The notes beneath the pieces are model-generated. The model was given only the letters and a program-made list of their open reading frames with translations. It did not search any database and was not told the DNA's origin. From the IMG/VR virus record IMGVR_UViG_3300027659_003120, positions 27,817-91,816 of that record: DNA of 64,000 bases. One strand, written 5' to 3'. This DNA is from a virus. Positions 12,965 to 63,510 of the stretch are shown piece by piece. Each line of letters starts with the position of its first letter. Within the stretch, counting starts at the first letter, position 1. Made by a program: the position numbers and the translations under genes.

Positions 12965-13615
12965 ATGAAACTGATTACAGAAACTATAGAAAACGTCAAA
13001 TACTTATTTGAAAAAACCGAAAGTGGAAAGAAAAATCTTTTCATTGAAGGTGTATTTCTTGTTGGCGAACAAGCCAATAAAAATCGTAGAGTATATAAAA
13101 TGAATACTCTACGAGAAGAAGTTAATCGTTACACAAATGAATACATAACAACCAATCGGGCATTAGGTGAGTTAGGTCATCCAGATACTCCATCAATTAA
13201 TCTTGAGAGAGTATCACATAAAATAATTTCATTAAAAGAAAACGGAAATGTATTCATAGGAAAAGCGCAAATTTTAGAAACTCCATATGGCAACATTGTA
13301 AAAAACTTCATTGATTCTGGTGTCAGTCTTGGTGTTTCTTCTAGAGGTATGGGTTCTTTAATTCCAGGAGAAGATGGAATTAACATTGTAGGCGAAGATT
13401 TTCGTTTAGCAACTGCGGCGGACATTGTTGCGGACCCATCTGCACCAGGTGCTTTTATAAATGGTATCATGGAAAACAAAGAATGGTTATTCGTTGAAGG
13501 TCGTTTTGTAGAAATTGATATTGATAGAACGAAACGAGAGATTCAGAAAGCCCCAAGAAAAGAAGTTGAAAAAGTAGCCGCACGGCTCTTTGAAAATTTT
13601 CTATCAAAACTTTAA
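12965..13615 (+). CDS. gp21: prohead core protease gp21
   Basis: MKLITE, RALGELGHP, GVSSRGMGSL, DIVADPSAPGAF. Confidence 0.96.
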   Translation: MKLITETIENVKYLFEKTESGKKNLFIEGVFLVGEQANKNRRVYKMNTLREEVNRYTNEYITTNRALGELGHPDTPSINLERVSHKIISLKENGNVFIGKAQILETPYGNIVKNFIDSGVSLGVSSRGMGSLIPGEDGINIVGEDFRLATAADIVADPSAPGAFINGIMENKEWLFVEGRFVEIDIDRTKREIQKAPRKEVEKVAARLFENFLSKL

Positions 13616-13651: not shown

Positions 13652-14623
13652 ATGGCTACAAATAAACTTTTAGAGGCGGCTGCTGAAATTCTTGCATCAG
13701 GCAAGGGTAAAAATGCTATGCCTCCAGAAAAGCTACCTGCAGAAATACATGATGCCGGCGGTCCAACACCAGAAAATGCTAAACCGGATGATGATTCTCA
13801 CAAAATTACGCCGTCAACAAAAAGCGCAACCGCTCCTACAACTCATTCAACTAAAAAAGAAGAAGTTGAAGAAGAAGAATATGAATTAGATTTATCTGAA
13901 GATATTAATTCTTTATTCTCAGATGATGATACAATTTCTGAAGAATTTAAACAAAAAGTTACTACAATTTTTGAAGCTCGTGTCTATGACCGTGTTAAAC
14001 AAATTGAAGAAAACATTGAAGAACAATATGCGTCCATGCTAGAAGAAGCCGTGGAAACAGTTAAAGAAGACTTAACCGAAAAAGTAAATGATTACATTTC
14101 TTATGTGGTTGAGCAATGGATGTCCGATAATGAAATCGCAATAGAAAAAGGAATTCGTTCCGAATTAACTGAAGATTTTATTTCTGGACTCCGTAATTTA
14201 TTTGCAGAACACTATATTGATGTTCCTACAGATAAAGTAGATTTAGTTGATGAGTTGTCTAGTAAAGTTGATGAACTTGAAGATAAACTCAACGAAGAAG
14301 TAGAACGCTCAGTAGAATATCGTAAAGCTCTTACTGAAGCCTATAAAAATGAAGTTACCCGAGATGTGTGTGAAGGTTTAACAGATACACAAGTTGAAAA
14401 AATTAAAACACTCGCAGAGAGTGTGGATTTTTCTACAGAGGAAGAATACCAAGAAAAACTTGTAACTATCCGCGAAAATTATTTCCCATCTGGAGTAAAA
14501 AAGGCAGACGAAGCCCTACTTCACGAACAAGTAATTGACAATGGACAAGAAGAAATTAAACAGTCTAATGACCCATTCATTAATTCCATTGTTCAGTCAA
14601 TTTCAAAAACAAACAGATTTTAA
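13652..14623 (+). CDS. gp22: prohead core scaffold gp22
   Basis: SEEFKQKVTTIFEA, LFAEHYIDVP, IRENYF; acidic coiled coil. Confidence 0.94.
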   Translation: MATNKLLEAAAEILASGKGKNAMPPEKLPAEIHDAGGPTPENAKPDDDSHKITPSTKSATAPTTHSTKKEEVEEEEYELDLSEDINSLFSDDDTISEEFKQKVTTIFEARVYDRVKQIEENIEEQYASMLEEAVETVKEDLTEKVNDYISYVVEQWMSDNEIAIEKGIRSELTEDFISGLRNLFAEHYIDVPTDKVDLVDELSSKVDELEDKLNEEVERSVEYRKALTEAYKNEVTRDVCEGLTDTQVEKIKTLAESVDFSTEEEYQEKLVTIRENYFPSGVKKADEALLHEQVIDNGQEEIKQSNDPFINSIVQSISKTNRF

Positions 14624-45005: not shown

Positions 45006-46241
45006 ATGAAATTTAAAGACTTTTTAATTGAGGGCGCAAAAAAAGAAGGTGCCAATCTTCATTTGGAACATATTGAGGACCAAGTTTTAAACCGCGGTGT
45101 CGCTGGCGCTAGAGAAGCAATTAATTTTTTGCGTTCTTTGCGTGATATGCTTGCTGGGCACTCAGAAACCAAAGTAAATGTTACCACTAAATGGGATGGT
45201 GCACCTGCGGTTTTTTGTGGAATTAATCCAGACAACGGTAAGTTTTTTGTAGGCACCAAAGGTGTTTTCAATGCAAATCCTAAACTTAACTATACTGAAG
45301 ATGATATTGATAACAATCATTCATCGCCGGGTTTAAATGCTAAATTAAAAGTTGCATTAAGGTATTTACCGAAATTGGGTATCACTGGAATATTACAGGG
45401 TGATATGATGTTCTCTAAGGGTGATATAAAAAAACAAACTATAGATGCACAATCCTATATTACTTTTCAACCTAACACTATTGTATATGCTGTTCCGTCA
45501 AATACAAAATTATCACAATCAATGTTAGCAGCACAAATGGGAATTGTTTTTCACACTTCATATACTGGCAAAAGATTTTCAGATATGAAGGCATCATTTA
45601 ACATTGATATTAATAATTTAAAAACAACTAAAGATGTTTGGTTTCGTGATGCATATTTTATTGACGCATCTGGTACAGCATCATTTACTGAAAAAGAAAC
45701 AAAAGATATTACATACATATTATCTCAAGCAGGCACTATTTTTCAGAAAATTAATCATTTAACTTTGAATAAAATTGCTACTTCAGAAAGTATTTTAGTT
45801 CAAATTAAAACTTTCAACAATACGAAAGTTCGTGAAGGTGAAGCAATCAAAGATACATATAAACATACTCAAGAATTAGTAAGATGGGTAGAATCTAGAT
45901 TCAATAAAGAAATTTTAGATGCTAAAAAAGAAGAAACTAAACTAAAACGCCAATCTGAAAAAAATGAGATTATGCGTTTTTATAGAAATAATGGAAACGA
46001 ATTAAAAAATATATTTGATTTAATGAACATGCTTGTAGATTCAAAAAACATGATTGTTAAAAAATTACAAGGAATGAAACAGGTAACTGATACATTCTTA
46101 AAAACTGATACCGGGTTTAAAGTTACAAATCCAGAAGGTTTTGTGGCTGTAGATAAATTAACTGGCGGAGCTGTAAAGTTGATTGATAGACTAGAATTTG
46201 CCTATGCCAATTTTACTGCCGCTAAAGCTTGGACAAAATAA
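45006..46241 (+). CDS. DUF6267-like protein with ligase-type KxDG motif
   Basis: HLEHIED, TTKWDGAPA, QGDMMF, EGFV, VKLIDRLEF resemble nucleotidyltransferase motifs I, III, IV, V. Confidence 0.65.
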   Translation: MKFKDFLIEGAKKEGANLHLEHIEDQVLNRGVAGAREAINFLRSLRDMLAGHSETKVNVTTKWDGAPAVFCGINPDNGKFFVGTKGVFNANPKLNYTEDDIDNNHSSPGLNAKLKVALRYLPKLGITGILQGDMMFSKGDIKKQTIDAQSYITFQPNTIVYAVPSNTKLSQSMLAAQMGIVFHTSYTGKRFSDMKASFNIDINNLKTTKDVWFRDAYFIDASGTASFTEKETKDITYILSQAGTIFQKINHLTLNKIATSESILVQIKTFNNTKVREGEAIKDTYKHTQELVRWVESRFNKEILDAKKEETKLKRQSEKNEIMRFYRNNGNELKNIFDLMNMLVDSKNMIVKKLQGMKQVTDTFLKTDTGFKVTNPEGFVAVDKLTGGAVKLIDRLEFAYANFTAAKAWTK

Positions 46242-47401: not shown

Positions 47402-48080
47402 TGGTATTTTTTTTGTTTCTTCGGCATTAAATGTAAAACAACTATCTGTCTTTAGTAATGATGAGCGGTATCATCAAACGGTAAATACGATTAATTCTAT
47501 TGACAAATACTGCCCAAATAATGTAAAATATATGTTTGATACATCATATCAAATTCCAGATGAAAATTACATAGAAGGTATAAAAAAACTAGGAGTTAAT
47601 TTTGCATGGGTTGGTTATAATGATACTGTACAAAGACTATCCGAACAAGGTTCAAGAAGTTTAGCAGAGACCATAGGTTTTGATATGATTCTTAATGAAT
47701 TTTTATTAAATAGGGTAGAAAGTAAAAGAGTTTATAAAATATCAGGTCGGTATCAATTAAATGATAACTTCACATTAAACCGAGAAGATTTTAAAGATTC
47801 TTTTGTTTTTTTACCTACTGTAAATTCTTGGATGCCTAAACACCATCAAGAATTTGCAGAAGTTGATAGAATATTTGAACTCAGATTATGGCATATGGAC
47901 TATAATTTACTTGACACATTCAAAAAAGAAGTGTATAATATACTAAATGATATGGTAAAATATAATATTGATGTTGAACATTCTTATTATAAGAACCTTA
48001 ACAAGTATAAATGGACAACAATTAACCCTATAGGATTAGAAGGTGTGATAGCACCAACAGGAGCAATTATTAATGAGTAA
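47394..48080 (+). CDS. hypothetical protein, possible glycosyltransferase
   Basis: YKISGRY motif; GAGG SD; cluster context. Confidence 0.5.
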   Translation: MLDGIFFVSSALNVKQLSVFSNDERYHQTVNTINSIDKYCPNNVKYMFDTSYQIPDENYIEGIKKLGVNFAWVGYNDTVQRLSEQGSRSLAETIGFDMILNEFLLNRVESKRVYKISGRYQLNDNFTLNREDFKDSFVFLPTVNSWMPKHHQEFAEVDRIFELRLWHMDYNLLDTFKKEVYNILNDMVKYNIDVEHSYYKNLNKYKWTTINPIGLEGVIAPTGAIINE

Positions 48081-50315: not shown

Positions 50316-51007
50316 TGAAAATTGGTTTTGGTTTCTATGGTATCACTGATGGTACAGATGAGAGAACCGGTTATAGTAGAAACTATAAACATTGTTGGAA
50401 TGGTATACAAAAACATCTTATCCAACCTTTCGTAGATAGAGGAAATGAAGCTGTAATTTATGCATCTACATATCCTTTTACTACTAAAGAGTCAGAATTA
50501 GAATTTATATCCACAGTAAAACCTAAAAAAATATTATATTCCGATTTTGCAACATCTGATGCATTTACATCTAAATCTGCACTGCATGATGCATTTGTTG
50601 GTGAAGATTTAGATGTTGTTATATTCACCAGATTTGATATTCATTTTACAAAAATAATAGCAAATGAAGATATAGATTTCACTAAATTTAATTTTTTGTT
50701 TCCAGAAGATGAAAATTGGTGGAGGTCTCACCGATTTGCTTGTGATTGTTTTTATATTTGGAATCACAAATATAGCAATTCAGTGAAAGATGCTATGCGA
50801 GAAACATATGGATGGCCAAGAGGTACATTCTATCCTGATACTCACGGTCTAATTAATTTTTTAGATAAAAAAATACCACCAACAGAATTACATTTTATTT
50901 CAAAAATATGCGAGATAAGTAATGTTAATACATTTTATACATTGTGCAGAAAAGATGTGCCAGAACATCCGTGTAAGCATCCTGAAGTGAAAGCAAAATA
51001 TGGCTAA
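50315..51007 (+). CDS. hypothetical protein, possible glycosyltransferase
   Basis: TRFDI motif; cluster context. Confidence 0.5.
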   Translation: MKIGFGFYGITDGTDERTGYSRNYKHCWNGIQKHLIQPFVDRGNEAVIYASTYPFTTKESELEFISTVKPKKILYSDFATSDAFTSKSALHDAFVGEDLDVVIFTRFDIHFTKIIANEDIDFTKFNFLFPEDENWWRSHRFACDCFYIWNHKYSNSVKDAMRETYGWPRGTFYPDTHGLINFLDKKIPPTELHFISKICEISNVNTFYTLCRKDVPEHPCKHPEVKAKYG

Positions 51008-51731
51008 TTTAATTATATGCCCGGTCGGTATGAAAATGCCACATGACCCTCGGTGGAAAGAAGAAGAACATTGGCGTTGGACTAGCAATGACCGAAATTA
51101 TGAAACTCTTGCTGTAGTTTATAATGACTTTACACCAGAAGCAAACTCATATGATAACTTAATTAAGTTAAAGGGCCATAAATGGCAGATTATTCGTGAT
51201 ATTGCTAAAGATATTCCTAAAGGTAAATATAATTACATCGGATGTGTTGATGATGATTTGATTACCGATTATCATAGTTTTAATAATGGTCTTAAATTGG
51301 CTGAACAATTTAATTTTCCATACTGGCAATTATCTATGCCAGCAGATTCAAGTTTAATTTATCAACCACTGTTTAATGACCAAACTTGTATATTTTCTGA
51401 AACTAATTTTATTGAAATGGGTTCTTGTTTTTTCACTGAAGAAAAGTTTAGATTTTTAATTGAATTTATTAGTCATTGGGATTTAGAAATTGCATGGGGT
51501 ATAGATAAAACTTTTTACGATTTATTTCAGTGCCCGGCTGTTGTAGTTCACACAGGAATGATACATCAACCTTTTCGTGATAGTTATTACGATAAACAAA
51601 AAGCCATGGATGAAATGAATGATTATCTCTATAATAAGTATCCTAGTATATTAAAAGAACACTATGGTAGAGAATCTAATTTTATTGATAGACAAAATAC
51701 TTTAAGAAAGTTTGCATTAAAAAATGATTAA
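51000..51731 (+). CDS. DUF707-like GT-A protein
   Basis: VDDD, TNFIEM, WGID. Confidence 0.6.
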   Translation: MANLIICPVGMKMPHDPRWKEEEHWRWTSNDRNYETLAVVYNDFTPEANSYDNLIKLKGHKWQIIRDIAKDIPKGKYNYIGCVDDDLITDYHSFNNGLKLAEQFNFPYWQLSMPADSSLIYQPLFNDQTCIFSETNFIEMGSCFFTEEKFRFLIEFISHWDLEIAWGIDKTFYDLFQCPAVVVHTGMIHQPFRDSYYDKQKAMDEMNDYLYNKYPSILKEHYGRESNFIDRQNTLRKFALKND

Positions 51732-52272
51732 ATTAATAATCCTTGATGTTGATGGTGTAATGACAGATGGGCGTAAATACTACGACCGAGATGGTGTTGT
51801 TAGGTTAAAAACATTCTGCGATAAAGATTGGACTGCAATCAAAAGATTTAGAGCTATTGGTATAAATGTTATTTTCTTAACTGGTGACCCCTTTAATGTT
51901 ACAATAGGAGAAAATAGAAACATTGATGTAATTGTAAACCGAGCAAGTGGAAATTCTGAAATTATTCATAAAGATAAATCTGAATATTTGCCTAAAATAT
52001 GTGAAGATTATAAAGTTAGCCCAGATGAAATTGCATTTATAGGTGATGATATATTTGATGTTCAATTAATGCGATTGGTTGGGTTATCATTTTGCCCATG
52101 GGATGCACCAAAAATTGTTAGAAGTTATGCTCAAATACTTAGCGGCAATGGTGGTGAAAATTTAATAGCAGAGATGTATGATTATATGGAAGAAAAAAAG
52201 ATTATTGTGACTGGTTATTTTCCCGACCATTTACAAAAAGTTTATGAAATAGATTTGAAAGAGAAATTCTAA
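51724..52272 (+). CDS. KdsC-like HAD phosphatase
   Basis: DVDGVMTDG, IGDDIFD. Confidence 0.85.
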   Translation: MIKLIILDVDGVMTDGRKYYDRDGVVRLKTFCDKDWTAIKRFRAIGINVIFLTGDPFNVTIGENRNIDVIVNRASGNSEIIHKDKSEYLPKICEDYKVSPDEIAFIGDDIFDVQLMRLVGLSFCPWDAPKIVRSYAQILSGNGGENLIAEMYDYMEEKKIIVTGYFPDHLQKVYEIDLKEKF

Positions 52273-52940
52273 TGTTTGATATAACTCTATATGGGCATTT
52301 GACAAATGACACGATTATTGATAATGAAACAGAAACTATGTCACTAGGTGGTATTGCTAATTGTTGGAGAACTTTAATTGATTTAGATTCAAAATTGCAA
52401 ATAGGCTTAATGCCAACCGCCATAGGAACATCTGAAATTATAATTAATAGAACAAATTCTACAAGAACTTCTAAATCAAGTTTAAATGAAACTGCATTTA
52501 CACCAGAAATAAAACTATCTAAAATACACCATGTAATGTATCTTAATGAACTTCCAGATACTACTTTCATATCAAAATTGAATGGTATTTTAAGTGCTGA
52601 TTTATGTGTAGGAAAAGAAGTTGATTATGAATTATTAAAATATTTTGATTATATTTTTGTATCTAATGATGAACATGATGTAAATAAAATTAAAAAATAT
52701 AGTAAAGGTGCTGTTATTGCACATGAGCCTGAAGGAAGTATATATTGGTCAAGTGCAAATGATTTTGCTAAATCTTATACAATTGATAAAAAAGATTTTG
52801 TTGATAATGCAAATGTATTAGGTGCTGGTGATATGTTTGCTTCTTGTTTTTTGTATGCTATACTTAGTAATAGACTCCATATTGCAATAGAATTCGCACA
52901 CATTACCACGGCTGATTTAATAAGGAAATATAATGAATGA
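52272..52940 (+). CDS. PfkB-family carbohydrate kinase
   Basis: LGGIAN, LGAGDMFA anion hole. Confidence 0.8.
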   Translation: MFDITLYGHLTNDTIIDNETETMSLGGIANCWRTLIDLDSKLQIGLMPTAIGTSEIIINRTNSTRTSKSSLNETAFTPEIKLSKIHHVMYLNELPDTTFISKLNGILSADLCVGKEVDYELLKYFDYIFVSNDEHDVNKIKKYSKGAVIAHEPEGSIYWSSANDFAKSYTIDKKDFVDNANVLGAGDMFASCFLYAILSNRLHIAIEFAHITTADLIRKYNE

Positions 52941-53682
52941 TTTAAAACAATTGTACCTTGATATGGTACGCAAATGTGTTGCTGGCATGATTTATCGTGA
53001 TCCGAGCATGGCTCCATGGAATAATGGTATATTTGATGAAGAAGCCCGTACAAACGGTGGCGATTGGCCAAGTCAAGCGCATACAATGATTGGCGACACT
53101 CGTCTACGCAACATTGAAACTCTAGCAAACAAAATTTTTGAAGACAACATTTCTGGTCACTTTATTGAAACTGGAGTATGGCGTGGTGGCGCTTGTATTT
53201 TTATGAATGCAATATTTGAAGCTAATAATGTTTCTGATAGAAAAGTTTTTGTGTGTGATTCGTTTGAAGGACTACCACCACCTGATCCTAAGTATTCCGC
53301 TGATAATGGTGACAATCATCACACACTTCACTCAATCTTAGCTGTGTCCCTTGAACAGGTTAAAACAAATTTTGAACGATATAATTTATGGAATGACCGT
53401 GTATTTTTGGTTAAAGGATTTTTCCGGGACACAATGCCCGCACTAGTTAATGAAATTGATAAGATTGCATTGCTTCGTTTGGATGGTGACATGTATGAGT
53501 CCACAATTGATGTATTGAACTACATGTATCCTAAAGTTTCCATTGGTGGTTATATTATTGTTGATGATTGGAAATTACCAAACTGCCGCGCCGCTATTGA
53601 AGATTACACTAAGGCAAATAATTTTACTCCAAATACCATTGTAATTGATGGATCATCAGTATATTGGAAAAAAGAACAATGA
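52933..53682 (+). CDS. TylF/MycF/NovP-family sugar O-methyltransferase
   Basis: AHTMIG, ETGVWRGG, DSFEGLP, LRLDGDMYEST, IVDDW. Confidence 0.92.
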   Translation: MNDLKQLYLDMVRKCVAGMIYRDPSMAPWNNGIFDEEARTNGGDWPSQAHTMIGDTRLRNIETLANKIFEDNISGHFIETGVWRGGACIFMNAIFEANNVSDRKVFVCDSFEGLPPPDPKYSADNGDNHHTLHSILAVSLEQVKTNFERYNLWNDRVFLVKGFFRDTMPALVNEIDKIALLRLDGDMYESTIDVLNYMYPKVSIGGYIIVDDWKLPNCRAAIEDYTKANNFTPNTIVIDGSSVYWKKEQ

Positions 53683-54839
53683 AAAAATATAATTTACTTT
53701 TGCCTATTGCAGGCAAAGCACAACGATTTATTGATGCTGGTTACACTATGCCTAAACCTTTAATCTTAGCGAAAGGCAAGCATGTTATAGATTGGTCATT
53801 AGACTCTATTGATACTACAGAGTGTAACTTAATTTTCATAGTAAGATTAGACCACATTTACAACTTCAGTATTGATACGATTCTAAAACAAAAATTTGGA
53901 AAAGATATTGTTATTGTTATTGTAGATAAAGTAACACGAGGTGCATTAGAGACTTGCACTTTAGCGGAAAAATATATTGATAATGAACTTCCTCTTTACA
54001 TCTATACACCAGATGTTTATTTTTCTCCTAAGTTTAACCCAAACTGCATTAAAGAAGATACTGATGGTTTCTTATTAACTTTTCAGGCAAACAGCCCTGA
54101 CCACAGTTATGCAGATACCGACTCGCAAGGTATTGTTTCTCGTGTGGTAGAAAAAGAAGTTATTAGTGAACATGCTAATGTTGGTTTGTATTATTTTAAA
54201 ACAGGCAAATTATTTTTAAAATACGGGCAAGAAGCAATAGATAGAAATATGCTAGTTAAAAATGAATTTTACATAGCACCAATTTACAATTTAATGATTC
54301 GTGATAATCTAAAAATTACAGCATGTGATACAGAAAAAATGCACATCTTAGGTACACCAGATACTTTTGAATTTTTCTGCGATAGAGTTTTGCCTAGATT
54401 TGGTATGGATAAACCAATTGTTTTGGCTTGCGACCACTCTGGGTTTGAGTTAAAAGAAATTGCTAAAAAAATATTTGAAAATAATTTAACTAGTTATATT
54501 GATGTTGGCACTTATGTAAATAAGTCATGTGATTATTTTGATTATGTAAGTCAATCAGCAAAACTTATACGAGATAATGATTGCGATTTTGGCATCTCTT
54601 TCTGTCGGTCTGGTCAGGGTGTCAATATATCTGCGAATAAATGTGAGGGTATAATTTCTGCTTTATGTTTTGATGAATATACTGCTGAAATGGCAGTAAA
54701 ACATAACTGTGCAAATCATTTTGCGGTACCATCAAAATATGTAGATGAGAACATGTTAGAAAAAATGATTTCTATTTGGACAGAAACCTCATTTGATGGT
54801 GGCAGACATTTTACTAGATTAAATAAGGTACTAAAATGA
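53679..54839 (+). CDS. sugar nucleotidyltransferase fused to RpiB/LacAB sugar-phosphate isomerase
   Basis: PIAGKAQRF, PKPLI, EFYIAP, LGTP; then ACDHSG, CRSGQG, HNCAN, FDGGRH. Confidence 0.85.
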   Translation: MKKYNLLLPIAGKAQRFIDAGYTMPKPLILAKGKHVIDWSLDSIDTTECNLIFIVRLDHIYNFSIDTILKQKFGKDIVIVIVDKVTRGALETCTLAEKYIDNELPLYIYTPDVYFSPKFNPNCIKEDTDGFLLTFQANSPDHSYADTDSQGIVSRVVEKEVISEHANVGLYYFKTGKLFLKYGQEAIDRNMLVKNEFYIAPIYNLMIRDNLKITACDTEKMHILGTPDTFEFFCDRVLPRFGMDKPIVLACDHSGFELKEIAKKIFENNLTSYIDVGTYVNKSCDYFDYVSQSAKLIRDNDCDFGISFCRSGQGVNISANKCEGIISALCFDEYTAEMAVKHNCANHFAVPSKYVDENMLEKMISIWTETSFDGGRHFTRLNKVLK

Positions 54840-55288
54840 CAATGTATATTGCACACAGAGGAAATTTAGAGGGTCGCTTATCTGAACACGAGAATGACCC
54901 AAATTATATTGACAATGCAATAAATCAGGGATACACGGTTGAAGTTGATTTGTGGTATTTTGATGGTATTCTTAAACTGGGGCACGATGAAAAATTTCAT
55001 TCTGTGCCATCAGAGTGGCTATTTTACAGAAATACTTCTATTTTAAATCATTGTAAAAATTCTGCCGCTTTTGATTATTGCTTAAATAATAATTTACATG
55101 CATTTTGGCATACGGAAGAAGATTATGTTCAAACTACTCTTGGATATACTGTTGGATATCCAGGAAGAGAATCTGTAGGCAGTAAATTTATACTTGGTGT
55201 GCCAGAAAGAGTTTATGAATTAGATGATATTAAGCATAGAATTACATTTGGAGTAATGTCAGACTATGTAAAACTGCTAAATACATAA
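54836..55288 (+). CDS. GDPD/PLC-like phosphodiesterase
   Basis: IAHRGN, EN, VEVD, LGHD, HCKN. Confidence 0.7.
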   Translation: MTMYIAHRGNLEGRLSEHENDPNYIDNAINQGYTVEVDLWYFDGILKLGHDEKFHSVPSEWLFYRNTSILNHCKNSAAFDYCLNNNLHAFWHTEEDYVQTTLGYTVGYPGRESVGSKFILGVPERVYELDDIKHRITFGVMSDYVKLLNT

Positions 55289-55291
55289 ATA
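55284..55291 (+). promoter_or_regulatory. late promoter variant CATAAATA
   Basis: Upstream of the capsid-leader gene block. Confidence 0.6.
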
Positions 55292-55326: not shown

Positions 55327-57483
55327 ATGGATTTTAAGCGGTTCTTATCGGAACAAAAGGAAAAGCATGCCGTCCTTGCATTTGGGCGCATGAATCCACC
55401 AACGGTTGGTCACGCCAAACTTGTTGATAAAGTAAAAGATATTGCAAATGAAGTTGGTGGCAAATCTTTTATTGTATTGTCGCACACACAAGATGCGGCC
55501 AAAAATCCACTCAGTCCTGAACAAAAAGTAAAACACGCACAAAGATATTTTCCTGGCGTCAATATTACAACCTCAGATAAATCTCACCCAAATTTTTTAT
55601 CCCAAGCGTCTAAAATTTATAGTGCTGGTTATACACATCTTATCATGGTCGCTGGCTCTGATAGAATTGCAGAATATAAAACAATTCTTAATAAATATAA
55701 TGGCGTAAAAGGCACTCACGGTTATTTTAAATTCAGAGATATTCAAGTTCATTCAGCAGGTGAACGAGACCCAGACGCTGAAGGCGTTTCTGGTATGTCA
55801 GCATCTAAAATGCGAGGCCATGCTGAAAAAGGTAACTTCAAAGAATTCAAAAAAGGAATTCCTTCTCATGTACAACCAGAACACGCTAAAGAATTGTATA
55901 ATGATGTGCGTAAAGGTATGCAAATCAAAGAAGAAAATGAATTCAAAGAATCAGATTTGAGTAGATTCAGTAAGTATATAATAAAGGCAACTAAAACCGA
56001 ACCTAAAATTGTTCGCAAAACAAATCCGTCTGGAAGAACTACAGATCATGTTGAGTACGAAGTTCATGGCACATTATCATCACATAGAAAATCTTTTAAA
56101 TCTAAAAAAGAAGCAGAAGAATATTTTAAAACTGTTAAAGAAGAAGATGTTAATGAAGAATTTGAACAATTATTAAATGAAGGCGTACACGACAAAGCAA
56201 TCTTCAAAGCAGTATTTTTATCTGGCGGACCAGGTTCAGGTAAAGATTATGTGCTAAACAATACCTTAGCTGGTCATGGTCTAACCGAAATTAATTCAGA
56301 TAAAGCATTTGAATTTCTAATGGATAAAAAGAAATTAGATAAAAAAATGCCAGACTCCGAGAAAGAAGTTCGTGACATAGAACGAGGTAAAGCAAAAAAT
56401 ATGATTGAATTGCGACAAAGATTTGCACTCTCTGGGCGTAATGGACTTATTATCAATGGCACAGGTGATGACCCCAAAAAATATGCTAAACTAAAAAAAG
56501 AATTAGAAGAATTAGGTTATGAGACTTCTATGATAGCTGTAGTTACAAAAGATGAAATATCAGCACAACGCAACATAGAAAGAGGGCAACGAGGAGGTCG
56601 TACTGTACCTGAAACTACTCGCAAAGAAAAATGGGATGCAGTAAACAACTCAAGGCCTGAAATGGCTAAATTGTTTGGTCAGAATTATATTGAATTTGAT
56701 AATTCTGAAGATTTGCGAACCGCACCACCGGAAGTAACGGAAGTAAAAAAGAAAGAAATACTACAAATCTTTAAAAAAATTCAAGAATTTATTAAGAGAC
56801 CACCAAAAAATCCAGCAGCATCTTCTTGGGTTGCAGGAGAACTTTCAAAGAAAGATACTTTGCCTGTTCCTAGAAAGGGTACTGAAAAACTGCAACCAGC
56901 GGATTCAAGTCTTGCTCAAGATGCACAGAAACTTGGATTACAATATTATGGTTTTGGTAGGTATGGAAAAAATGGTAAAGTAACACATCATTCAGTTCAT
57001 GGTAAATTAGTTCAAGACCCAACACATATGGAACAAGAAAAAAGTGCCAAAAAAGCAGCAGATATTAAACTTGCAGCATCAAGCGGTAGTAATACAAAGA
57101 ATAAAAAAGTAACTGAAGAATTTTCACAATCATTAAGAAAAAAAGTTAAACATTCAGACGGAAATACATACACTGCACACAGCGATAAACCAAGAATTTA
57201 TGTTATAAGAAATAATGCTGCTAAAGATGCTCATCGGTTAAATGGTGAGATAGTACAAACATCAAATGGATATATGGTTAAATTAAAGGAGAATGCGGAT
57301 GATGAAATTAATCAAGAGTTTTTTCAAGAAGACTTACCCACCAGAATTGCCACAAACGAACATTGTGGAGACTCCAGTTATCACACCAGTGATAATGCCG
57401 GAACCACCGATAGTGCTACAAGAATTGAAGGTAAACTCAGTTTCTCAAAACTCAAAGAACAGTGGAAAAAAAAGAACAGTTAA
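55327..57483 (+). CDS. multidomain protein: HxGH-type nucleotidyltransferase + P-loop kinase + small modules
   Basis: FGRMNPPTVGH, SASKMR; GGPGSGKD Walker A, INGTG, RNIERGQRGGR lid. Confidence 0.8.
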   Translation: MDFKRFLSEQKEKHAVLAFGRMNPPTVGHAKLVDKVKDIANEVGGKSFIVLSHTQDAAKNPLSPEQKVKHAQRYFPGVNITTSDKSHPNFLSQASKIYSAGYTHLIMVAGSDRIAEYKTILNKYNGVKGTHGYFKFRDIQVHSAGERDPDAEGVSGMSASKMRGHAEKGNFKEFKKGIPSHVQPEHAKELYNDVRKGMQIKEENEFKESDLSRFSKYIIKATKTEPKIVRKTNPSGRTTDHVEYEVHGTLSSHRKSFKSKKEAEEYFKTVKEEDVNEEFEQLLNEGVHDKAIFKAVFLSGGPGSGKDYVLNNTLAGHGLTEINSDKAFEFLMDKKKLDKKMPDSEKEVRDIERGKAKNMIELRQRFALSGRNGLIINGTGDDPKKYAKLKKELEELGYETSMIAVVTKDEISAQRNIERGQRGGRTVPETTRKEKWDAVNNSRPEMAKLFGQNYIEFDNSEDLRTAPPEVTEVKKKEILQIFKKIQEFIKRPPKNPAASSWVAGELSKKDTLPVPRKGTEKLQPADSSLAQDAQKLGLQYYGFGRYGKNGKVTHHSVHGKLVQDPTHMEQEKSAKKAADIKLAASSGSNTKNKKVTEEFSQSLRKKVKHSDGNTYTAHSDKPRIYVIRNNAAKDAHRLNGEIVQTSNGYMVKLKENADDEINQEFFQEDLPTRIATNEHCGDSSYHTSDNAGTTDSATRIEGKLSFSKLKEQWKKKNS

Positions 57484-57496
57484 GAGTGTAAAATGA
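57293..57496 (+). CDS. small overlapping gene in alternate frame
   Basis: AAGGAG SD before ATG cluster; stop overlaps next start (ATGA). Confidence 0.45.
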   Translation: MRMMKLIKSFFKKTYPPELPQTNIVETPVITPVIMPEPPIVLQELKVNSVSQNSKNSGKKRTVKSVK

Positions 57497-57882
57497 AATC
57501 GTATAAACAATTTTTAGAGGCGTGTTGGACTGGGTACAAACAGGTTGGTATGAAGAAAAAAGGTAACCGTATGGTGCCAAATTGTGTACCAAAAAACGAA
57601 GAAGTTGAGTTGGACGAAACGCAAGCATGGACACGCAAAGAAGGTAAGAATCCGGAAGGCGGGCTGAATCGTAAAGGTATTGCATCTTATCGTGCTGCAA
57701 ATCCTGGTTCTAAATTATCTATGGCAGTTACTACACCACCATCTCAATTGAAAGCCGGCTCAAAAGCAGCTAATCGTAGAAAATCATTCTGTGCTAGAAT
57801 GGGCGGAATGCCAGGTCCCATGAAAGATGAGAAGGGTGAACCAACTCGTAAAGCATTATCACTAAGAAAATGGAATTGTTAA
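57493..57882 (+). CDS. small basic putative internal head protein
   Basis: MKSYKQFLE leader; CWTGYKQVGMKKKGNRMVPNCV module; AWTRKEGK...RRKSFCARM...SLRKWNC module. Confidence 0.7.
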   Translation: MKSYKQFLEACWTGYKQVGMKKKGNRMVPNCVPKNEEVELDETQAWTRKEGKNPEGGLNRKGIASYRAANPGSKLSMAVTTPPSQLKAGSKAANRRKSFCARMGGMPGPMKDEKGEPTRKALSLRKWNC

Positions 57883-57902
57883 CAAAATAATAGGAGAAAC
57901 AA

Positions 57903-58667
57903 ATGTTCGGAGATAAAATCACACAGTCGGTTGCTGAGGCTGTAAAACAAATTTTAGCAACAGAGAAATTACATCCTAATCAACAAAAATTAGATGTACA
58001 TGAACCTGAAAAAGATAAATTGACAAGAAAAGATTTTGAGATGCTTCGGTCTAATAAGAAACCAAAGAATGAAGCATTTAATCCACTCAAGCATATCGTG
58101 AATCCATCACCTGCTGTTAAGACCGCTGCTAAGGATGTTAAGCGTGGTAGTTATGCTGACCGTGCTGCATTGATGAAGGCTGGCGGTGTTAAAGATGACC
58201 GCGGTCCTCGTGGCGTGACAAAAGAAGAAGTTGAAGAATTAGATTTATACGAAGATGAGGATCGTTTAAAATCTAGAATTGAAAAAGAAAAAGGACATGT
58301 TAAAAGCCTTGCTGCACGAGCTAAGACCACTACCGGAACAGATGGTAAAAAAACAATGATGTTTCCTGATCCGGAATCAAGCTATGCTCATGAAGAAAGA
58401 TTGCAAAAAATTGCAAAGATGGAAGCCAGACTAGGAAAAATACAAAAAAAGAAAAGTGTGACAAAAGAAGAAGTTGAAGAAGCTGTAGAAAGTCCATTCA
58501 CATCTTACAAAAAACCTAGAGAAATAGAATCACGTGGCGGTTCTGGCATCAAACAAGGAACTCGGTACGGTGGCGGAAAACAAAAAGATGTACCTACTCA
58601 AGATGAAGCACCAAAAACAAAAAAGCCTAAAGGTATGATGAATTTCAAAGAAATGTTCGGAGAGTAA
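57903..58667 (+). CDS. modular putative internal head protein
   Basis: Basic modules separated by VTKEEVEE linkers; AGGAG SD. Confidence 0.65.
   Translation: MFGDKITQSVAEAVKQILATEKLHPNQQKLDVHEPEKDKLTRKDFEMLRSNKKPKNEAFNPLKHIVNPSPAVKTAAKDVKRGSYADRAALMKAGGVKDDRGPRGVTKEEVEELDLYEDEDRLKSRIEKEKGHVKSLAARAKTTTGTDGKKTMMFPDPESSYAHEERLQKIAKMEARLGKIQKKKSVTKEEVEEAVESPFTSYKKPREIESRGGSGIKQGTRYGGGKQKDVPTQDEAPKTKKPKGMMNFKEMFGE
58215..58481 (+). repeat. 24-bp perfect direct repeat GTGACAAAAGAAGAAGTTGAAGAA (58215-58238, 58458-58481)
   Basis: Identical copies read directly from sequence. Confidence 0.9.
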
Positions 58668-58668
58668 A

Positions 58669-61600
58669 ATGAAAATACAGTCAAATGCTATGGATAGAAT
58701 TAGACAATTGCAAAACAGAACTTTACGAGAAACTGTTGGTTTGCAAGAAGCAATGCATCCAGATGATCCTAAAAAAAATATGCCGCTAGGTGGAGGAAGT
58801 GGTGGCGGTGTTCCGTTCAACACAGTATTTGATCCTAAAAATCCATCAAAAATACCTGGAAGTTTTAAAGCTAAGGCGGATGCAGCGGCCAGTAAAACAA
58901 AACCTGAAACATTAGGTAGCGCACCTAGTGGAAGAAATTATGGTCTAATTCAAACAACTCAAGCTGAAAAAGATGCAGCATGGAAAAAATCGCAAGACCT
59001 CAAAGCACAAAAGGCCGCAGCGGGTGGCGGTGGCGCTGGAAAACCACCTTCTGGTGGTAACTCATCAGGAAGAGATAACATGCCTCCTGATTCCGACAAA
59101 TTTGATAAAGCAGTACCTGCTGCCGCAATTTCTACGGGCGCGGCTGGAGCAATTGCCATCGCCGCTCAACAGTTATCAAAAGACGATAAACCAGCATCAG
59201 CGCCAAAGCCAGCAGCAGCAGCAAAAGATACAGCAGGACCAAAAGGCGTGCCATTGCCAGACAATGACCCTAGATGGAAATTACCAATTCCGCCACCACC
59301 GCCAGTAGTAGCAAAGACAGAACCAGCGCCAGCATCAGCGCCAAAGCCAGCAGCACCTGCCACTAATGCCAGAGCTAATTTTGCAGCCATCGATCCAAGA
59401 AGAGATGCCATGGCAGCTAATGTTGAACCAGTAAAAGCGAAACAAGTTAGACCTGATAATGGTGATAGTGGAAGTCCTGGAAGTGTTGCTGGCAAAAAAA
59501 TTGACGCCAATATTCCACAATATAAACAACCAACAACACCGCCAGCAGCAAAGACAGAACCAGCGCCAGCGCCAGCAAAGACAGACAGAAATACTTATGC
59601 ATCCAGCGATTCAAGAATAGCCTCCATGGCAGTTGATGTTAAACCAGTAAAAGCAACACCACCGCCAGTAACAGTAAAAAAAGAACCAGCTCCAGTAGTA
59701 GTAAAAAAAGAACCAGCTCCAGTAGTAGTAAAAAAAGAACCAGCTCCAGTAGTAGTAAAAAAAGAACCAGCGCCAGTAGTAGTAAAAAAAGAACCACCGC
59801 CAACACCGCCAGCAGCGAAAACACCACCGCCAACACCGCCAGATAATATTAGTCCCGATGTTGATATTAGTCCCGAGGCAAAAGCCGCAGGTGAAAGGAA
59901 GGGCGTTAACCCAGAAATGTTAAGGGCTCAGGTAGTCGCAGCAAATAAAGAAAAAAAAGAAAAAGAAGAAAGAGAAAAATTATCCGGAGCAATCTACTCC
60001 GACGAATCTGTACAATCTAAAGCAAGAAGTGCATCTTTTGTTTTTGAAAGAATTAGAAATATAACAGAAGGTCGCCCATCTCAGCGTCATCCACTAGAGG
60101 GGCATGATTACCACAAAAAATCTAATGATGAATTAATTTATATTGCTAAAGATGCACATAAAGCGGCTGAAGCAATGAAGGGCCATAATACTAAAGCAGA
60201 AAACAAATATCGTGACCAAGCAAACGATTCTGCTACTGTTCGGTACTATCGTCAAAAAAGTGGTATGCCGGACTGGTATAAAAAGAAATATGGTCACTTA
60301 AAGGAAGAAAATGTACCTGTGCCACCAGAAACAAAAGTAGTAAAAAAAGAACCAGAAACAAAAGTAGTAACACAAAAGAAACTACAAACCGGAGGTTCAG
60401 CTGGTGGTAGTAGATATCCGTGGAATTACGAAAGTGTTAATCATGTGACGGAAGCAAAAGAAAAGACAGAGTATGATTACGAAGGTGACATGGCTCGTGG
60501 TCAATTGCAAAGCATTATCAGCAATGCACAGAGAGTACATGACATGCTAGAAGATAATGACAATCTTGCTGAGTGGGTACAATCAAAGATTACTCTTGCT
60601 GAAGATTACATTTCAACAGTTGCTAATTACATGATGAGCGAAGTTGATGAAGAAGTGCAAATTGATGAACTATCTTCCGAGCTTCTAGGACGCTATAAAA
60701 AATCTGCTGGTGCTCAAGCATCCGCTGCTGATAAATCTGGTGACTATGCTAAAGCTAACAAACGGTTTAGTGGCATTATGAAAGCAACCAAAAAGCAATT
60801 TGCTAACGATACTAAACCTGTATCCGAATCTGATGCCGCATATGGTGCTTCTCTTAGAGCAAAAGAAGAAAAACGTAAGATGAGTAACATTAGTGGTGCA
60901 GATAAATCTAAGTTATCATCAATTGTTTCTAGGTTGAATAGAGAAAAGAAGAAACTACCTCAGGGCGCTAACGATACTAAGCAAGTTGTGGCGGAAGTTA
61001 GCAATAATACACTAAAAAGTTATCAACAAAAAGTAAGTTCTGACTCTATGAAACATAAAGCAGACCCAACAAAACGTAGTCCAGAAAAAGCCAACCGCAG
61101 TGTTGCAGGATTTGCTAAAGCGCAGAATCGTTCAGAGCAAGGTGTGGCGGAAGCAGTTGAATCACATCAAGGAGAGTGGATTGATGAAGCAGGTCCTGGT
61201 CTATGGGCAAACATTCATGCAAAGCGCCAACGAATTAAGCAAGGTTCAAAAGAGCGTATGAGAAATCCTGGCGAAAAAGGTGCACCAGAATCTGGTGCAT
61301 TAGAAAAAGCAAGAGGCACGAATGAAGAAGTAAAAGGTGAATATGAACGCAAAGTTGACAAATATCTGAAAAAGAAATATACACCAGATGATAACAAACC
61401 ACCATTTGATGCACCATATGCTAAAATGCCAAAGGCTGATAAATCTGGTGCAGTGCATTCACCAATGTCAAGAGCAAAACATCTTGCTAAGATGGCAGGT
61501 AGAAAACAAGCAGGTATTAAAGAGAATTCACATGATGGACAAGATAATATTAATACACCCGCTAAAAGGTCTTTATCTAAAACCGCAGGAATGGTTAAAA

Positions 61601-61692
61601 GTATTTTAAAGGGTGCAAAATCTAAAAATAAAAATTTAGATAAATTTGAAAGCGATCCAGAATTATCTTCACAAATAGTCAAACAAGAATAA
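58669..61692 (+). CDS. 1007-aa low-complexity modular protein, putative internal head polyprotein
   Basis: Pro/Ala/Lys-rich N-half; C-half of short modules each bounded by hydrophobic-x-E sites. Confidence 0.7.
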   Translation: MKIQSNAMDRIRQLQNRTLRETVGLQEAMHPDDPKKNMPLGGGSGGGVPFNTVFDPKNPSKIPGSFKAKADAAASKTKPETLGSAPSGRNYGLIQTTQAEKDAAWKKSQDLKAQKAAAGGGGAGKPPSGGNSSGRDNMPPDSDKFDKAVPAAAISTGAAGAIAIAAQQLSKDDKPASAPKPAAAAKDTAGPKGVPLPDNDPRWKLPIPPPPPVVAKTEPAPASAPKPAAPATNARANFAAIDPRRDAMAANVEPVKAKQVRPDNGDSGSPGSVAGKKIDANIPQYKQPTTPPAAKTEPAPAPAKTDRNTYASSDSRIASMAVDVKPVKATPPPVTVKKEPAPVVVKKEPAPVVVKKEPAPVVVKKEPAPVVVKKEPPPTPPAAKTPPPTPPDNISPDVDISPEAKAAGERKGVNPEMLRAQVVAANKEKKEKEEREKLSGAIYSDESVQSKARSASFVFERIRNITEGRPSQRHPLEGHDYHKKSNDELIYIAKDAHKAAEAMKGHNTKAENKYRDQANDSATVRYYRQKSGMPDWYKKKYGHLKEENVPVPPETKVVKKEPETKVVTQKKLQTGGSAGGSRYPWNYESVNHVTEAKEKTEYDYEGDMARGQLQSIISNAQRVHDMLEDNDNLAEWVQSKITLAEDYISTVANYMMSEVDEEVQIDELSSELLGRYKKSAGAQASAADKSGDYAKANKRFSGIMKATKKQFANDTKPVSESDAAYGASLRAKEEKRKMSNISGADKSKLSSIVSRLNREKKKLPQGANDTKQVVAEVSNNTLKSYQQKVSSDSMKHKADPTKRSPEKANRSVAGFAKAQNRSEQGVAEAVESHQGEWIDEAGPGLWANIHAKRQRIKQGSKERMRNPGEKGAPESGALEKARGTNEEVKGEYERKVDKYLKKKYTPDDNKPPFDAPYAKMPKADKSGAVHSPMSRAKHLAKMAGRKQAGIKENSHDGQDNINTPAKRSLSKTAGMVKSILKGAKSKNKNLDKFESDPELSSQIVKQE
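59665..59799 (+). repeat. five tandem 27-bp coding repeats (PVVVKKEPA)
   Basis: CCAGTAGTAGTAAAAAAAGAACCAGCT units, head to tail. Confidence 0.92.
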
Positions 61693-61694
61693 TT

Positions 61695-61702
61695 CATAAA
61701 TA
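61695..61702 (+). promoter_or_regulatory. late promoter variant CATAAATA
   Basis: Intergenic, upstream of AAGGAG. Confidence 0.65.
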
Positions 61703-61728
61703 TAACAATAAACAATAAGGAGATTAAA

Positions 61729-62340
61729 ATGGCTTTATGGACTAATTCAGATGCAGCCAACGGTGCACCAAAAATAATTGGTGTTGCTGGTGTAAATAAC
61801 GCAAGTGGCTCAGATATGTATGGTAATACACAAATTGCAGCATTTAATACGGGTTTACGGGAAACTGCCGGTGTTTTCGGTGTAAGTACAATTGAACAAA
61901 CGGTATCAGAAACTTCAAATACACACCCACAACATGCGGGCTGGGTTTTGGTTACCAGAGGTACAGGACCAATTATTAGTGTTACAGCAAATACTTCTGC
62001 TGTTACAACTAATGGCGCACTAACTTTAACTGGCGGCGGAACTGGTGCTACACAGGCTAATGTTTATATTTCGGTTAATGCTCAAGGATATGTTGTAAAT
62101 TCAGCAATCCAAATTAATCCAGTTAATGATTTTATTGGTGGTAATTACTTAACTGTTCCAACACATGCAGCGGCAGGAAATGCAGTATTTACCTTCACTC
62201 TAGGTGGTCGTGCTGGTCGTAGTCAAACTGAAACTTTAGTTGCTATGGGCAGTTTAGGTAATGTTAATGCTACAGGTATTGCTCCCGCAGTATTCGTTGC
62301 AGATAATGCTGCTGACAATGCAATTTTCCCAAATAGTTAA
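61729..62340 (+). CDS. putative virion structural protein
   Basis: MALW start, HAGWV, GRAGRSQTETLVAM; Gly/Ala/Thr/Asn rich; late promoter. Confidence 0.65.
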   Translation: MALWTNSDAANGAPKIIGVAGVNNASGSDMYGNTQIAAFNTGLRETAGVFGVSTIEQTVSETSNTHPQHAGWVLVTRGTGPIISVTANTSAVTTNGALTLTGGGTGATQANVYISVNAQGYVVNSAIQINPVNDFIGGNYLTVPTHAAAGNAVFTFTLGGRAGRSQTETLVAMGSLGNVNATGIAPAVFVADNAADNAIFPNS

Positions 62341-62765
62341 TGTTAAACTTTACATCATTTTTGACTGAGGAAATAGAATTTGGTCAAGCAGTACAAGCAC
62401 ATGAACCCACAGGTAAAGAATCTTTATCTGTGGAAAATCCAATGTTTGTTGCAAAGATAAATTCAAATTTTAAAATAGAATTAAATGATGTTTTTTTGTC
62501 TCCAGAGTCTGGATTTCAAAAAATTCGTAAGGTATTGCATAAATTTGGTTTAGATATGCCAGCAATGTATGATATGGAACCAGATGGCGATGAGATTGTA
62601 TTAGATGTTGCTCAATTTGGTGATGCATCTTTAGGCACAGGATTACTTTACATATTATATCTTTTAGGTGATGAAGGATATTATCATTTTTATTCTGAAA
62701 TTACAAATGAATCGGGAATAGAAGAATTGATTTCTTCTGGTCTTGAGGAGGAAGACGAAGATTAA
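62340..62765 (+). CDS. acidic hypothetical protein
   Basis: TAATG coupling; MLNFTSFLTE leader. Confidence 0.6.
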   Translation: MLNFTSFLTEEIEFGQAVQAHEPTGKESLSVENPMFVAKINSNFKIELNDVFLSPESGFQKIRKVLHKFGLDMPAMYDMEPDGDEIVLDVAQFGDASLGTGLLYILYLLGDEGYYHFYSEITNESGIEELISSGLEEEDED

Positions 62766-62767
62766 TA

Positions 62768-63160
62768 ATGTATTTTGATGATTTGAACAGTGAGAATTAT
62801 ATGCTATATGCAGTTAAAGCTTACGATAAACCAAATTGTATTATGAGTGAATTTAAAGAAGATATGAAAAGATTTAATTATCTTAAAAAATTATTTCATA
62901 GATATCGTGAATTTGGTGAACTGCGTGAGAGACTTGTAATAAATCATTTAGTTGTTATGTATAATGTTTTTGGTGTAGAAGAAACAACAAGATTATTATT
63001 TTATAAGACTAAAGTTGAATATTACCCGGCACTTAAAACTTATCTGTTATTTTTAAATTATATGCCAACTTGTATCAAAGGAATTAAAGGAAAAGATATT
63101 TTATCATCCAATATTCCAGTTGATATGAGAATAGCAGATTTACTTAGAGAAATAAAATGA
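62768..63160 (+). CDS. conserved T4-like hypothetical protein
   Basis: YDKPNC..EFKEDMKRFNYLK, ERLVINH, YNVFG, LFYK. Confidence 0.75.
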   Translation: MYFDDLNSENYMLYAVKAYDKPNCIMSEFKEDMKRFNYLKKLFHRYREFGELRERLVINHLVVMYNVFGVEETTRLLFYKTKVEYYPALKTYLLFLNYMPTCIKGIKGKDILSSNIPVDMRIADLLREIK

Positions 63161-63510
63161 ATGAACATATTTTTAAGGATATCAAGGAAGATGTTCCTTC
63201 TAACTCATCGGGTGCTGGGGCTATAGCGGGCCTTGGTGTACCTAATCCAAATTTACCTAATCAAGCAGAGCCCGGCGTAAAGAAACGCAAAAAATTTGCA
63301 GGGTCTACTGTATTTCCAGTATCAACTAAATCTTTTGTTATGGCTAAAATGATGAAACGAAAAGGTGTTCGTTTTGAATCATACCTTGGTGACCCAGATA
63401 TCGCTAAAGAAATTGCTGAGTATGCAAATAAAAATTGGAAAGAAGCAATAGTTCTTGAGGATGAGCAAACCGGAGCAATGTGTTATCTGAGATACGGTAG
63501 GGGAAATTAA
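63157..63510 (+). CDS. hypothetical protein
   Basis: EDVPSNSSGAGAIAG, EDEQTGAM; coupled at both ends. Confidence 0.6.
   Translation: MNEHIFKDIKEDVPSNSSGAGAIAGLGVPNPNLPNQAEPGVKKRKKFAGSTVFPVSTKSFVMAKMMKRKGVRFESYLGDPDIAKEIAEYANKNWKEAIVLEDEQTGAMCYLRYGRGN

Follow-up and report, generated by a model that had tools for sequence, protein, structure and literature searches.

When considered from the point of view of proteins carried inside the phage head, the best-known system is that of bacteriophage T4, in which targeting by the capsid targeting sequence MKTYQEFIAE (PMC8442874) relies on residues 4 and 7 and its processing on residues 8 and 10 (PMC9026906), and in which the prohead protease gp21 cuts according to the published rule L/I-x-E. 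In T4, Asp in place of the P1 Glu (the residue before the cut) abolishes processing and leaves targeting intact. Another group, the polyvalent proteins, was likened to viral polyproteins by its own authors (Iyer, Burroughs, Anand, de Souza and Aravind 2017; PMC5512222). The locus described here, at positions 55,327 to 63,510 of a 64,000-nucleotide stretch of the IMG/VR virus record IMGVR_UViG_3300027659_003120 (positions 27,817 to 91,816 of that record; hereafter the window), contains genes for proteins of 718, 129, 254 and 1007 residues (aa) that appear to be assembled from modules joined by short linkers, and for a protein of 141 aa. The window is the final 64 kb of a 91.8-kb contig from an uncultured freshwater T4-like myophage with about 33% GC, and nearly all of its genes lie on the + strand. 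On the basis of sequence comparison, we put at roughly 65% the probability that the locus encodes late-expressed, head-internal cargo with joints for the prohead protease, packaging and cleavage being inferred.

The first indication lies in the N-termini. The leaders MDFKRFLSE, MKSYKQFLE, MLNFTSFLTE and, for the DUF6267 gene at 45006, MKFKDFLIE, which a first-pass annotation of the window had picked out, are all found in the open reading frames (ORFs), and the ORF coordinates and linkers that it listed are likewise present as described. A strict leader pattern (M, one or two residues, F/Y, two residues, F/Y, L/I/V/M, zero or one residue, E) fits four of the 96 contig genes, namely those at 45006, 55327, 57493 and 62340, with a mean of 0.03 for shuffled N-termini. 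Set beside the T4 sequence, these leaders of 9–10 residues carry an aromatic side chain at positions 4 and 7, followed by L/I at 8 and Glu at 10, some being offset or short by one residue. For comparison, 80 related IMG/VR contigs (loci L002–L081) were used. All 34 distinct homologues of the 718-aa protein retain the leader, as do the homologues of the 129-aa protein and most of the 28 loci homologous to the 141-aa gene, and every one of more than 60 DUF6267 homologues read starts with MKF-x-[DE]-[FY]-[LI]-x-E. Cytidylyltransferases of cultured cyanophages carry the same type of leader (MKSFFQFLSE in S-SM2, MKNFSSFLTE in S-CREM2).

The second indication lies at the boundaries between modules. 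The window proteins were cut into modules, each module was searched in the ORFs of the 80 loci, and the flanking residues were read. A hydrophobic-x-E motif lies no more than two residues from the module boundary in 144 of 190 distinct upstream contexts (background 13.9%), contexts within one module family sharing descent in part, so that the nominal p-value overstates their independence; several modules have at least six clearly unrelated upstream neighbours. The upstream motif reaches 100% for the transferase, cassette B, kinase, DUF6321, N, Q and U modules, and an arbitrary control cut within the kinase unit (500/501) gave 0/37. In motif-anchored contexts, Glu occupies P1 in 124 of 125 cases (kinase 28/28, GRPSQRHP 15/15, DUF6321 30/31, DLRxWF 23/23, P 17/17, B 4/4, R 2/2, HicA 5/5), the kinase being preceded by hydrophobic-x-E in 28 of 28. 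A hydrophobic residue, mostly L or I, stands at P3 in 128 of 133 junctions (L 74, I 26, F 12, V 9, M 7), P4–P6 are acidic, and P1' is mostly G, D, A, V or S. As read from these sequences, the joint motif matches the T4 gp21 cutting rule. DUF6321 has at least 7,996 metagenomic relatives of 70–226 aa; among the best 120, 92 contain the anchor motif, and hydrophobic-x-E stands before the domain in 92/92. The joints VVAE (E776) and GVAE (E828) and both VTKEEVEE copies have no homologues for comparison. An analysis of high-scoring segment pairs crossing each site, run without composition correction, was abandoned in favour of the motif-anchored and module-BLAST analyses, as the K/E-rich low-complexity alignments were too noisy.

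In the 718-aa protein, the first-pass annotation had described a nucleotidyltransferase and a P-loop kinase parted by linkers, and profile and fold matches bear this out, placing them at residues 8–210 and 281–504, respectively. The transferase gives a weak Pfam match to CTP_transf_like, with Pfam and NCBIfam scores under curated cut-offs (the NCBIfam scan returned nothing over its cut-offs); its predicted local distance difference test score (pLDDT) is about 90, the nearest folds are NadD and PPAT (Foldseek on the AlphaFold model), and its motifs PPTVGH and SASKMR are invariant, in agreement with the HxGH and C-terminal ISxxxxR-type motifs on a Rossmann-like fold that mark the HIGH superfamily (NMNAT, PPAT and cytidylyltransferases). 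The kinase scores 42.5 bits with Pfam Zeta_toxin (cut-off 22.3), matches AAA_33 too, has an invariant GGPGSGK Walker A motif and finds its nearest folds in bacterial polynucleotide kinase and in adenylate and UMP-CMP kinases. Taken as a whole, the transferase-kinase pair can be aligned with ATP sulfurylase-APS kinase; a Foldseek search with the 718-aa model does not tell NadR-like, CoA-synthase-like, PAPS-synthase-like and RNA-repair-like pairings apart, and the matches do not point to one substrate for either enzyme. Searches of PDB sequences with the 718-aa protein and its profile, and with the DUF6267 protein, gave weak adenylate-kinase matches or none; for the DUF6267 protein, a ligase-like nature is one possible reading.

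The joints of this protein stand out in both alignment and model. Among 40 aligned sequences, E9, M198, E202, E285, G286 and E655 never change, unlike the remaining linker positions. All 36 distinct homologues keep [LIF]-[LI]-x-E directly before GVHDK ahead of the kinase, 35 of 36 have M-x-[LIVM]-x-E after the transferase (the exception, L024, has Thr at P3), and module F ends in an invariant KLKE. Most homologues have nothing between the two enzymes; the 64-aa basic cassette fills this gap in the window and in 11 loci, and L006 has another cassette there. In the AlphaFold2 model (mean pLDDT 70.9), residues 10–203, 289–505, about 530–580 and 612–655 are confident, and pLDDT falls below 50 at 204–226, 237–256, 271–288, 583–611 and 656–706. 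The joints E202/208, E272/277/285, E597 and E655/668 are all inside or at the edge of these low segments, and the other nine occurrences of the motif lie within folded cores. Likewise, in the model of the 129-aa protein, pLDDT is lowest at residues 36–41, the linker ahead of E42, which is invariant in 62 sequences. The DUF6321 domain behind this linker (PF19846) is recognized by Pfam at E 4e-23 (82.3 bits, gathering cut-off 28.5); Foldseek on the 129-aa model, together with the ESM Atlas, gave no solved fold match and no functional lead for the CW module or DUF6321. The picture of basic modules between acidic linkers drawn by the first-pass annotation is largely accurate (modules of pI 9.4–10.8, linkers of pI about 4.1), with module 596–667 of the 1007-aa protein departing from it in being acidic.

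The modules had been expected not to be always co-linear in homologues, and across the 80 related loci they are indeed reordered, moved between genes, split and inserted as cassettes, the order of genes in the locus being conserved and that of modules permuted. For instance, the large gene reads N-O-P-Q-R-S-U-V in the window, P-CW-N-V in L008, N-P-U-V in L011, CW-P-R-N-V in L072 and P-Q-N in L070. Module N has been relocated into the DUF6321 gene in L042 and L037, where it stands directly behind the leader, and the CW module is found within the transferase-kinase gene in L043. Depending on the phage, the same module may follow an N-terminal leader or an internal linker: GRPSQRHP is preceded by ...RNITE in the window, by the leader MKNFKTFITE in L037 and by ...EEVELTE, ...TLEE or ...SLNE in other loci; DUF6321 stands behind MKTYKEFLFE in L073 and behind EEVELDE in the window; the DLRxWF module provides a third case. 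In phage HTVC008M, kinase and transferase are encoded by two genes, in the opposite order, and the kinase begins MIPFILKE/G (the slash marks the position after Glu). Finally, short identical or near-identical DNA repeats encode the linkers that flank modules, namely VTKEEVEE (58215-58238 and 58458-58481), ANDTK (60802/60967) and Q-V/G-VAE (60980/61136), a pattern consistent with cassette exchange by recombination in linker DNA.

Some of these modules also exist as small proteins of their own. In the Pelagibacter podophage HTVC031P (L083, 3343-3737), the genes for scaffold and capsid have two tiny basic genes between them; the 49-aa gene is module U (the GLYANIHAKRKR module) and the 81-aa gene is DUF6321, both leaderless and stand-alone, and P-GSP1 has a leaderless DUF6321 of 78 aa. 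The podophages with stand-alone U and DUF6321 genes are without an S77 protease. A 55-aa ORF with 84% identity to the U module was also seen in Limnohabitans phage DC33 (L086, 2995-3162), whose Inoviridae label looks odd for a 39-kb genome.

Virion proteomes of cyanophages point in the same direction as the leaders. The cyanophage-core cytidylyltransferase T4-GC190 was detected by mass spectrometry in S-SM1 virions (PMC3037559), and S-CREM2 virions contained the cytidylyltransferase gp154 as well as gp155, gp156 and gp160 (PMC10665884), of which gp154 bears the leader, gp155 and gp156 are its neighbours, and gp160 contains a CW module and jointed basic modules. According to the same authors, kinases and cytidyltransferases are often found in cyanophage virions, and abundant non-structural proteins may co-purify with virions (PMC10665884). 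This caution, expressed for CsCl-purified particles, is what would favour the view that nothing is packaged at all, the N-terminal motif serving translation or folding and late cytoplasmic proteins contaminating the preparations. Such an explanation seems very improbable, given that the motif agrees with the T4 capsid targeting sequence at the positions that matter for function and co-occurs with an S77 protease, that the same module families adjoin capsid genes in podophages, and that detection in virions was repeated in independent cyanophage proteomes. In the searchable literature, neither a link of these detections to a capsid-targeting leader nor a description of a jointed cargo system was found.

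Besides this caution and the shared descent of contexts, several points weigh against protease-jointed head cargo. T4 internal proteins are cut just once. Moreover, the first-pass annotation had proposed motif frequency as a check, and counts of [LI]xE and [LIVM]xE in each protein, set against shuffled sequences and the rest of the contig's proteins, turned out otherwise than it supposed: the four proteins have 0.39–1.25 [LI]xE per 100 aa, within the range of other contig proteins, and the density of hydrophobic-x-E is not raised in the cargo proteins. Scaffold gp22 alone stands out, with 4.3 [LI]xE per 100 aa (z = 2.9) and the highest hydrophobic-x-E density of the contig. Since the T4 scaffold is chopped into small peptides, gp22 serves as an internal positive control. 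The density result is not decisive, because a three-residue motif is common everywhere and it is its location that matters. The single cut in T4 and the density result suit an alternative in which the proteins are packaged and lose their leader while the internal joints stay uncut, as polyvalent-type cargo, the linkers being relics of gene starts, recombination joints or solubilising spacers; the repeated linker DNA (the 24-bp copies, ANDTK and QxVAE) fits recombination joints, and polyvalent proteins can be delivered uncut (PMC5512222). We nevertheless consider this unlikely, as P1 Glu and P3 L/I remain invariant in otherwise variable linkers among homologues of about 50% identity, a constancy not expected of a relic, and as the joints are placed in disordered, exposed segments, where such a protease would be expected to cut; in addition, the modules occur elsewhere as stand-alone tiny proteins.

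Also unfavourable is that the 254- and 1007-aa proteins lack a canonical leader, and that the N-terminal 440 aa of the latter, made of Pro/Ala/Lys-rich repeats, have no homologues in the 80 related loci. Head cargo might then be restricted to the 718-, 129- and 141-aa proteins and the DUF6267 protein, all of which bear a leader; the other two might be core or scaffold accessories that are degraded and expelled, or late proteins outside the virion. This restriction is hard to reconcile with the relatives, in which modules N, CW and U of the 1007-aa protein stand behind canonical leaders (L037, L042) and orthologues of that protein begin MKSFLSFQE (L070) or MKKFKEMLE (L043), and it is accordingly judged improbable. 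The proposal of the first-pass annotation that these genes are cargo strings thus stands as regards the leaders, the presence of an S77 protease and scaffold, the reordering of modules at hydrophobic-x-E and the orthologues in cyanophage virions, and falls short as regards motif frequency and the leaders of the 254- and 1007-aa proteins. That the 203-aa, DUF7207 and 117-aa genes, which also lie within the range, belong to the cargo is unsupported, none having a canonical leader; the S-CREM2 homologue of DUF7207 (gp159) is absent from the proteins detected in virions.

If the locus does encode protease-jointed head cargo, the following sequence of events can be envisaged. The leader of 9–10 residues (M-K/D-x-F/Y-x-x-F/Y-L/I-x-E) of the 718-, 129- and 141-aa proteins and of the DUF6267 protein would steer them to the prohead scaffold core, where the S77 prohead protease would remove it and make further cuts at L/I-x-E joints in the exposed acidic linkers. 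The nucleotidyltransferase, the P-loop kinase and some 15–20 small, mostly basic modules would be released in this way, stay with the DNA and enter the next host together with it. The linkers may double as exchange points, so that related phages come to differ in module sets and orders. Packaging, internal cleavage and injection are predictions for this phage, and the comparison with the polyproteins of eukaryotic viruses is an analogy. As the modules are mostly widely conserved and strongly basic, a role as DNA-associated internal proteins fits at least as well as the anti-defence effectors previously suggested; the cargo most likely consists of DNA-associated internal proteins plus a few enzymes or effectors.

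HicA_toxin modules (PF07927) above the Pfam gathering score occur in relatives only, flanked by ...L-x-E joints; one of the proteins concerned, P0126 (199 aa), reads leader-CW-HicA-DUF6321. Their presence suggests that the chain format could hold toxic modules inert until the prohead protease acts. Extended to the chain as a whole, this would make it a zymogen-like safety and delivery device, whose harmful modules stay inert until gp21 acts in the sealed prohead and become active in the next host, an idea put forward tentatively. The 1431-aa polyprotein at L035:5453-9745, which holds one of the HicA modules, also shows a weak match to Intein_splicing (E 6e-4, under threshold).

Late expression is suggested by promoter-like motifs, as the table entry upstream of the 718-aa gene indicates. 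The 7-mer ATAAATA stands ahead of the cargo locus at 55285, and a further copy at 61696-61702 precedes the 203-aa gene. With 23 copies where about 45 were expected, ATAAATA is underrepresented in the window; on the + strand, many copies are just upstream of genes. The T4 late-promoter octamer TATAAATA occurs four times (at 1732, 13620, 16039 and 43910) against about 11.5 expected, each time on the + strand and just upstream of a gene. A DNA search found no near-identical DNA among deposited phages; at the level of proteins, Pelagibacter phage HTVC008M, Methylophilales phage Melnitz and the Kyanoviridae cyanomyoviruses come closest among cultured relatives.

The features of the locus and of the head module are listed below. 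The protease and scaffold match phrog_207 and phrog_237, respectively, and the propeptide site of the capsid protein, GINE/V, aligns near LTE/A of T4. Two proteins encoded at 11458-12165 and 12162-12593 adjoin gp21; one begins MKLLSEFKNLIE, and the other, with MNFINLLIE at its start, is acidic and rich in sites in its N-terminal half and rich in Arg/Lys in its C-terminal half. Both are likely to be prohead core proteins similar to gp67/gp68, with no family match. Between the DUF6267 gene and the cargo locus (46559-55288) lies a run of genes resembling sugar or nucleotide-sugar metabolism, with a weak glycosyltransferase match at 46559 and a 391-aa protein that, by eye, combines a nucleotidyltransferase-like half with a sugar-phosphate-isomerase-like half.

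Features of the cargo locus, the head genes and the HicA modules of relatives (window coordinates unless a locus is named)
Feature	Position	Strand	Remarks
Portal	9460-11127		T4 head module
Prohead protease gp21 (Peptidase_S77)	12965..13615	+	E 5e-33; presumed processing enzyme
Scaffold gp22 (T4_CASP)	13652..14623	+	E 6e-66
gp23-like capsid protein	14644-15972		T4 head module
DUF6267 protein, leader MKFKDFLIE	45006..46241	+	Pfam E 5e-113; outside the locus, same tag
T4-type late-promoter-like motif CATAAATA	55284..55291	+	36 nt upstream of 718-aa gene start
718-aa ORF	55327-57483	+	
Leader MDFKRFLSE, putative capsid-targeting propeptide	55327..55353	+	M1, F3 and E9 invariant in 40 homologues
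HIGH-motif nucleotidyltransferase module, aa 10-202, ending M-x-I-K-E	55354..55932	+	phrog_3041, E 3e-65
Linker with optional 64-aa basic cassette, aa 209-272	55933..56181	+	hydrophobic-x-E at E202/E208 and E272/E277/E285
P-loop kinase and C-terminal extension, aa 286-597	56182..57117	+	G286 directly after LLNE
C-terminal modules: F (aa 598-655), acidic linker (656-668), tail module (669-718)	57118..57480	+	
129-aa protein	57493..57882	+	leader MKSYKQFLE, two-Cys beta-hairpin CW module (10-36), EEVELDE, DUF6321 (43-129)
254-aa basic modular protein	57903..58667	+	two identical 24-bp VTKEEVEE repeats at 58215 and 58458
1007-aa ORF	58669-61692	+	
1007-aa protein, aa 1-467	58669..60069	+	degenerate N-terminus, then Pro/Ala/Lys-rich low-complexity half
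1007-aa protein, aa 468-1007	60070..61689	+	modules N (468-546), O, P (596-667, acidic), Q, R, S, U (841-952), V (953-1007)
203-aa protein, DUF7207 (62768-63160), 117-aa protein	61729..63510	+	none with canonical leader
141-aa acidic protein, leader MLNFTSFLTE	62340..62765	+	pI 4.1
HicA modules in relatives	L064:11755-13728 (aa 121-173); L035:5453-9745 (aa 75-125); protein P0126		

Within the 1007-aa protein, the joints are E467, E546, E595, E667, E720, E776, E828/E840 and E952. Its low-complexity half includes 5.4 copies of a 27-nt unit encoding KKEPAPVVV (tandem array 59658-59802), and the stretch 58750-60069 has an increased local GC of 43% and a strong AT skew. In the 254-aa protein, the N-terminal module alone has homologues, in 18 loci. 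The last codons of its gene (KEMFGE and stop) repeat, at the DNA level, the region where the gene starts (MFGD; 57897-57918 and 58647-58668), and the stop-A-ATG-AAA gene junction is likewise repeated (57471-57498 and 58647-58674); at the sequence level, the leader-like MNFKEMFGE at the C-terminus looks like a recombination scar, not a frameshift signal. A frameshift or readthrough fusing the 254- and 1007-aa ORFs was considered and rejected, there being a stop in the upstream frame 30 nt before the 1007-aa ATG and no slippery site.

If protease-jointed head cargo is indeed what the locus encodes, it would explain why non-structural enzymes such as cytidylyltransferases and kinases recur in cyanophage virion proteomes, and it would give a likely location and biogenesis to very large families without assigned function, for example DUF6321. 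It would also widen the T4 internal-protein paradigm, one of proteins with a single cut, to take in modular strings with many cuts, and it predicts exact N-termini after named Glu residues. Should the safety-device idea hold as well, recombination at shared linkers would provide aquatic T4-like phages with an evolvable platform for protein injection.

Compared with known systems, the locus is closest to the internal proteins IPI, IPII, IPIII and Alt of T4, with which it has in common the leader positions over about ten residues, the S77 protease rule L/I-x-E and a basic cargo; enzymes also figure as cargo in both, Alt in T4 and a transferase and a kinase here. In contrast, the T4 proteins are single modules with one cut, whereas here several unrelated modules follow each leader with extra cleavage-type joints, are shuffled among genes and phages, and include none homologous to T4 internal proteins. 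What is new with respect to the T4 pathway would thus be the several shuffled modules per chain and the several conserved joints, the tag, protease and cleavage rule being the same. Polyvalent proteins likewise combine many unrelated domains in one polypeptide (2–15) in a virion-gene context, with predicted delivery alongside the DNA (PMC5512222). They are released, if at all, by embedded peptidases, may have a MuF- or portal-linked architecture, and draw on domain families such as MuF, ART and PBECR; Pfam and PHROG scans of the window proteins found no peptidase, MuF or ART domain, and ARTs of T4-like phages do not occur within true polyvalent proteins (PMC5512222). Here, unlike in polyvalent proteins, it is a prohead protease encoded elsewhere that the joints fit, and the tag is of the T4 capsid targeting type. 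Giant phages resembling phiKZ (phiKZ gp175, 201phi2-1, SPN3US gp245) also have a protease related to gp21, which cleaves numerous head and ejection proteins behind the Glu of a short motif, in some cases at more than one site; the differences lie in the motif (S/A/G-x-E), in processing that mostly removes propeptides and in the protein families involved, and no strings of shuffled small plug-in modules have been described there. Finally, cyanophage T4-GC190 is homologous to the N-terminal enzyme of the 718-aa protein (38–40% identity), the transferase being connected here through a cassette linker with a P-loop kinase and additional modules.

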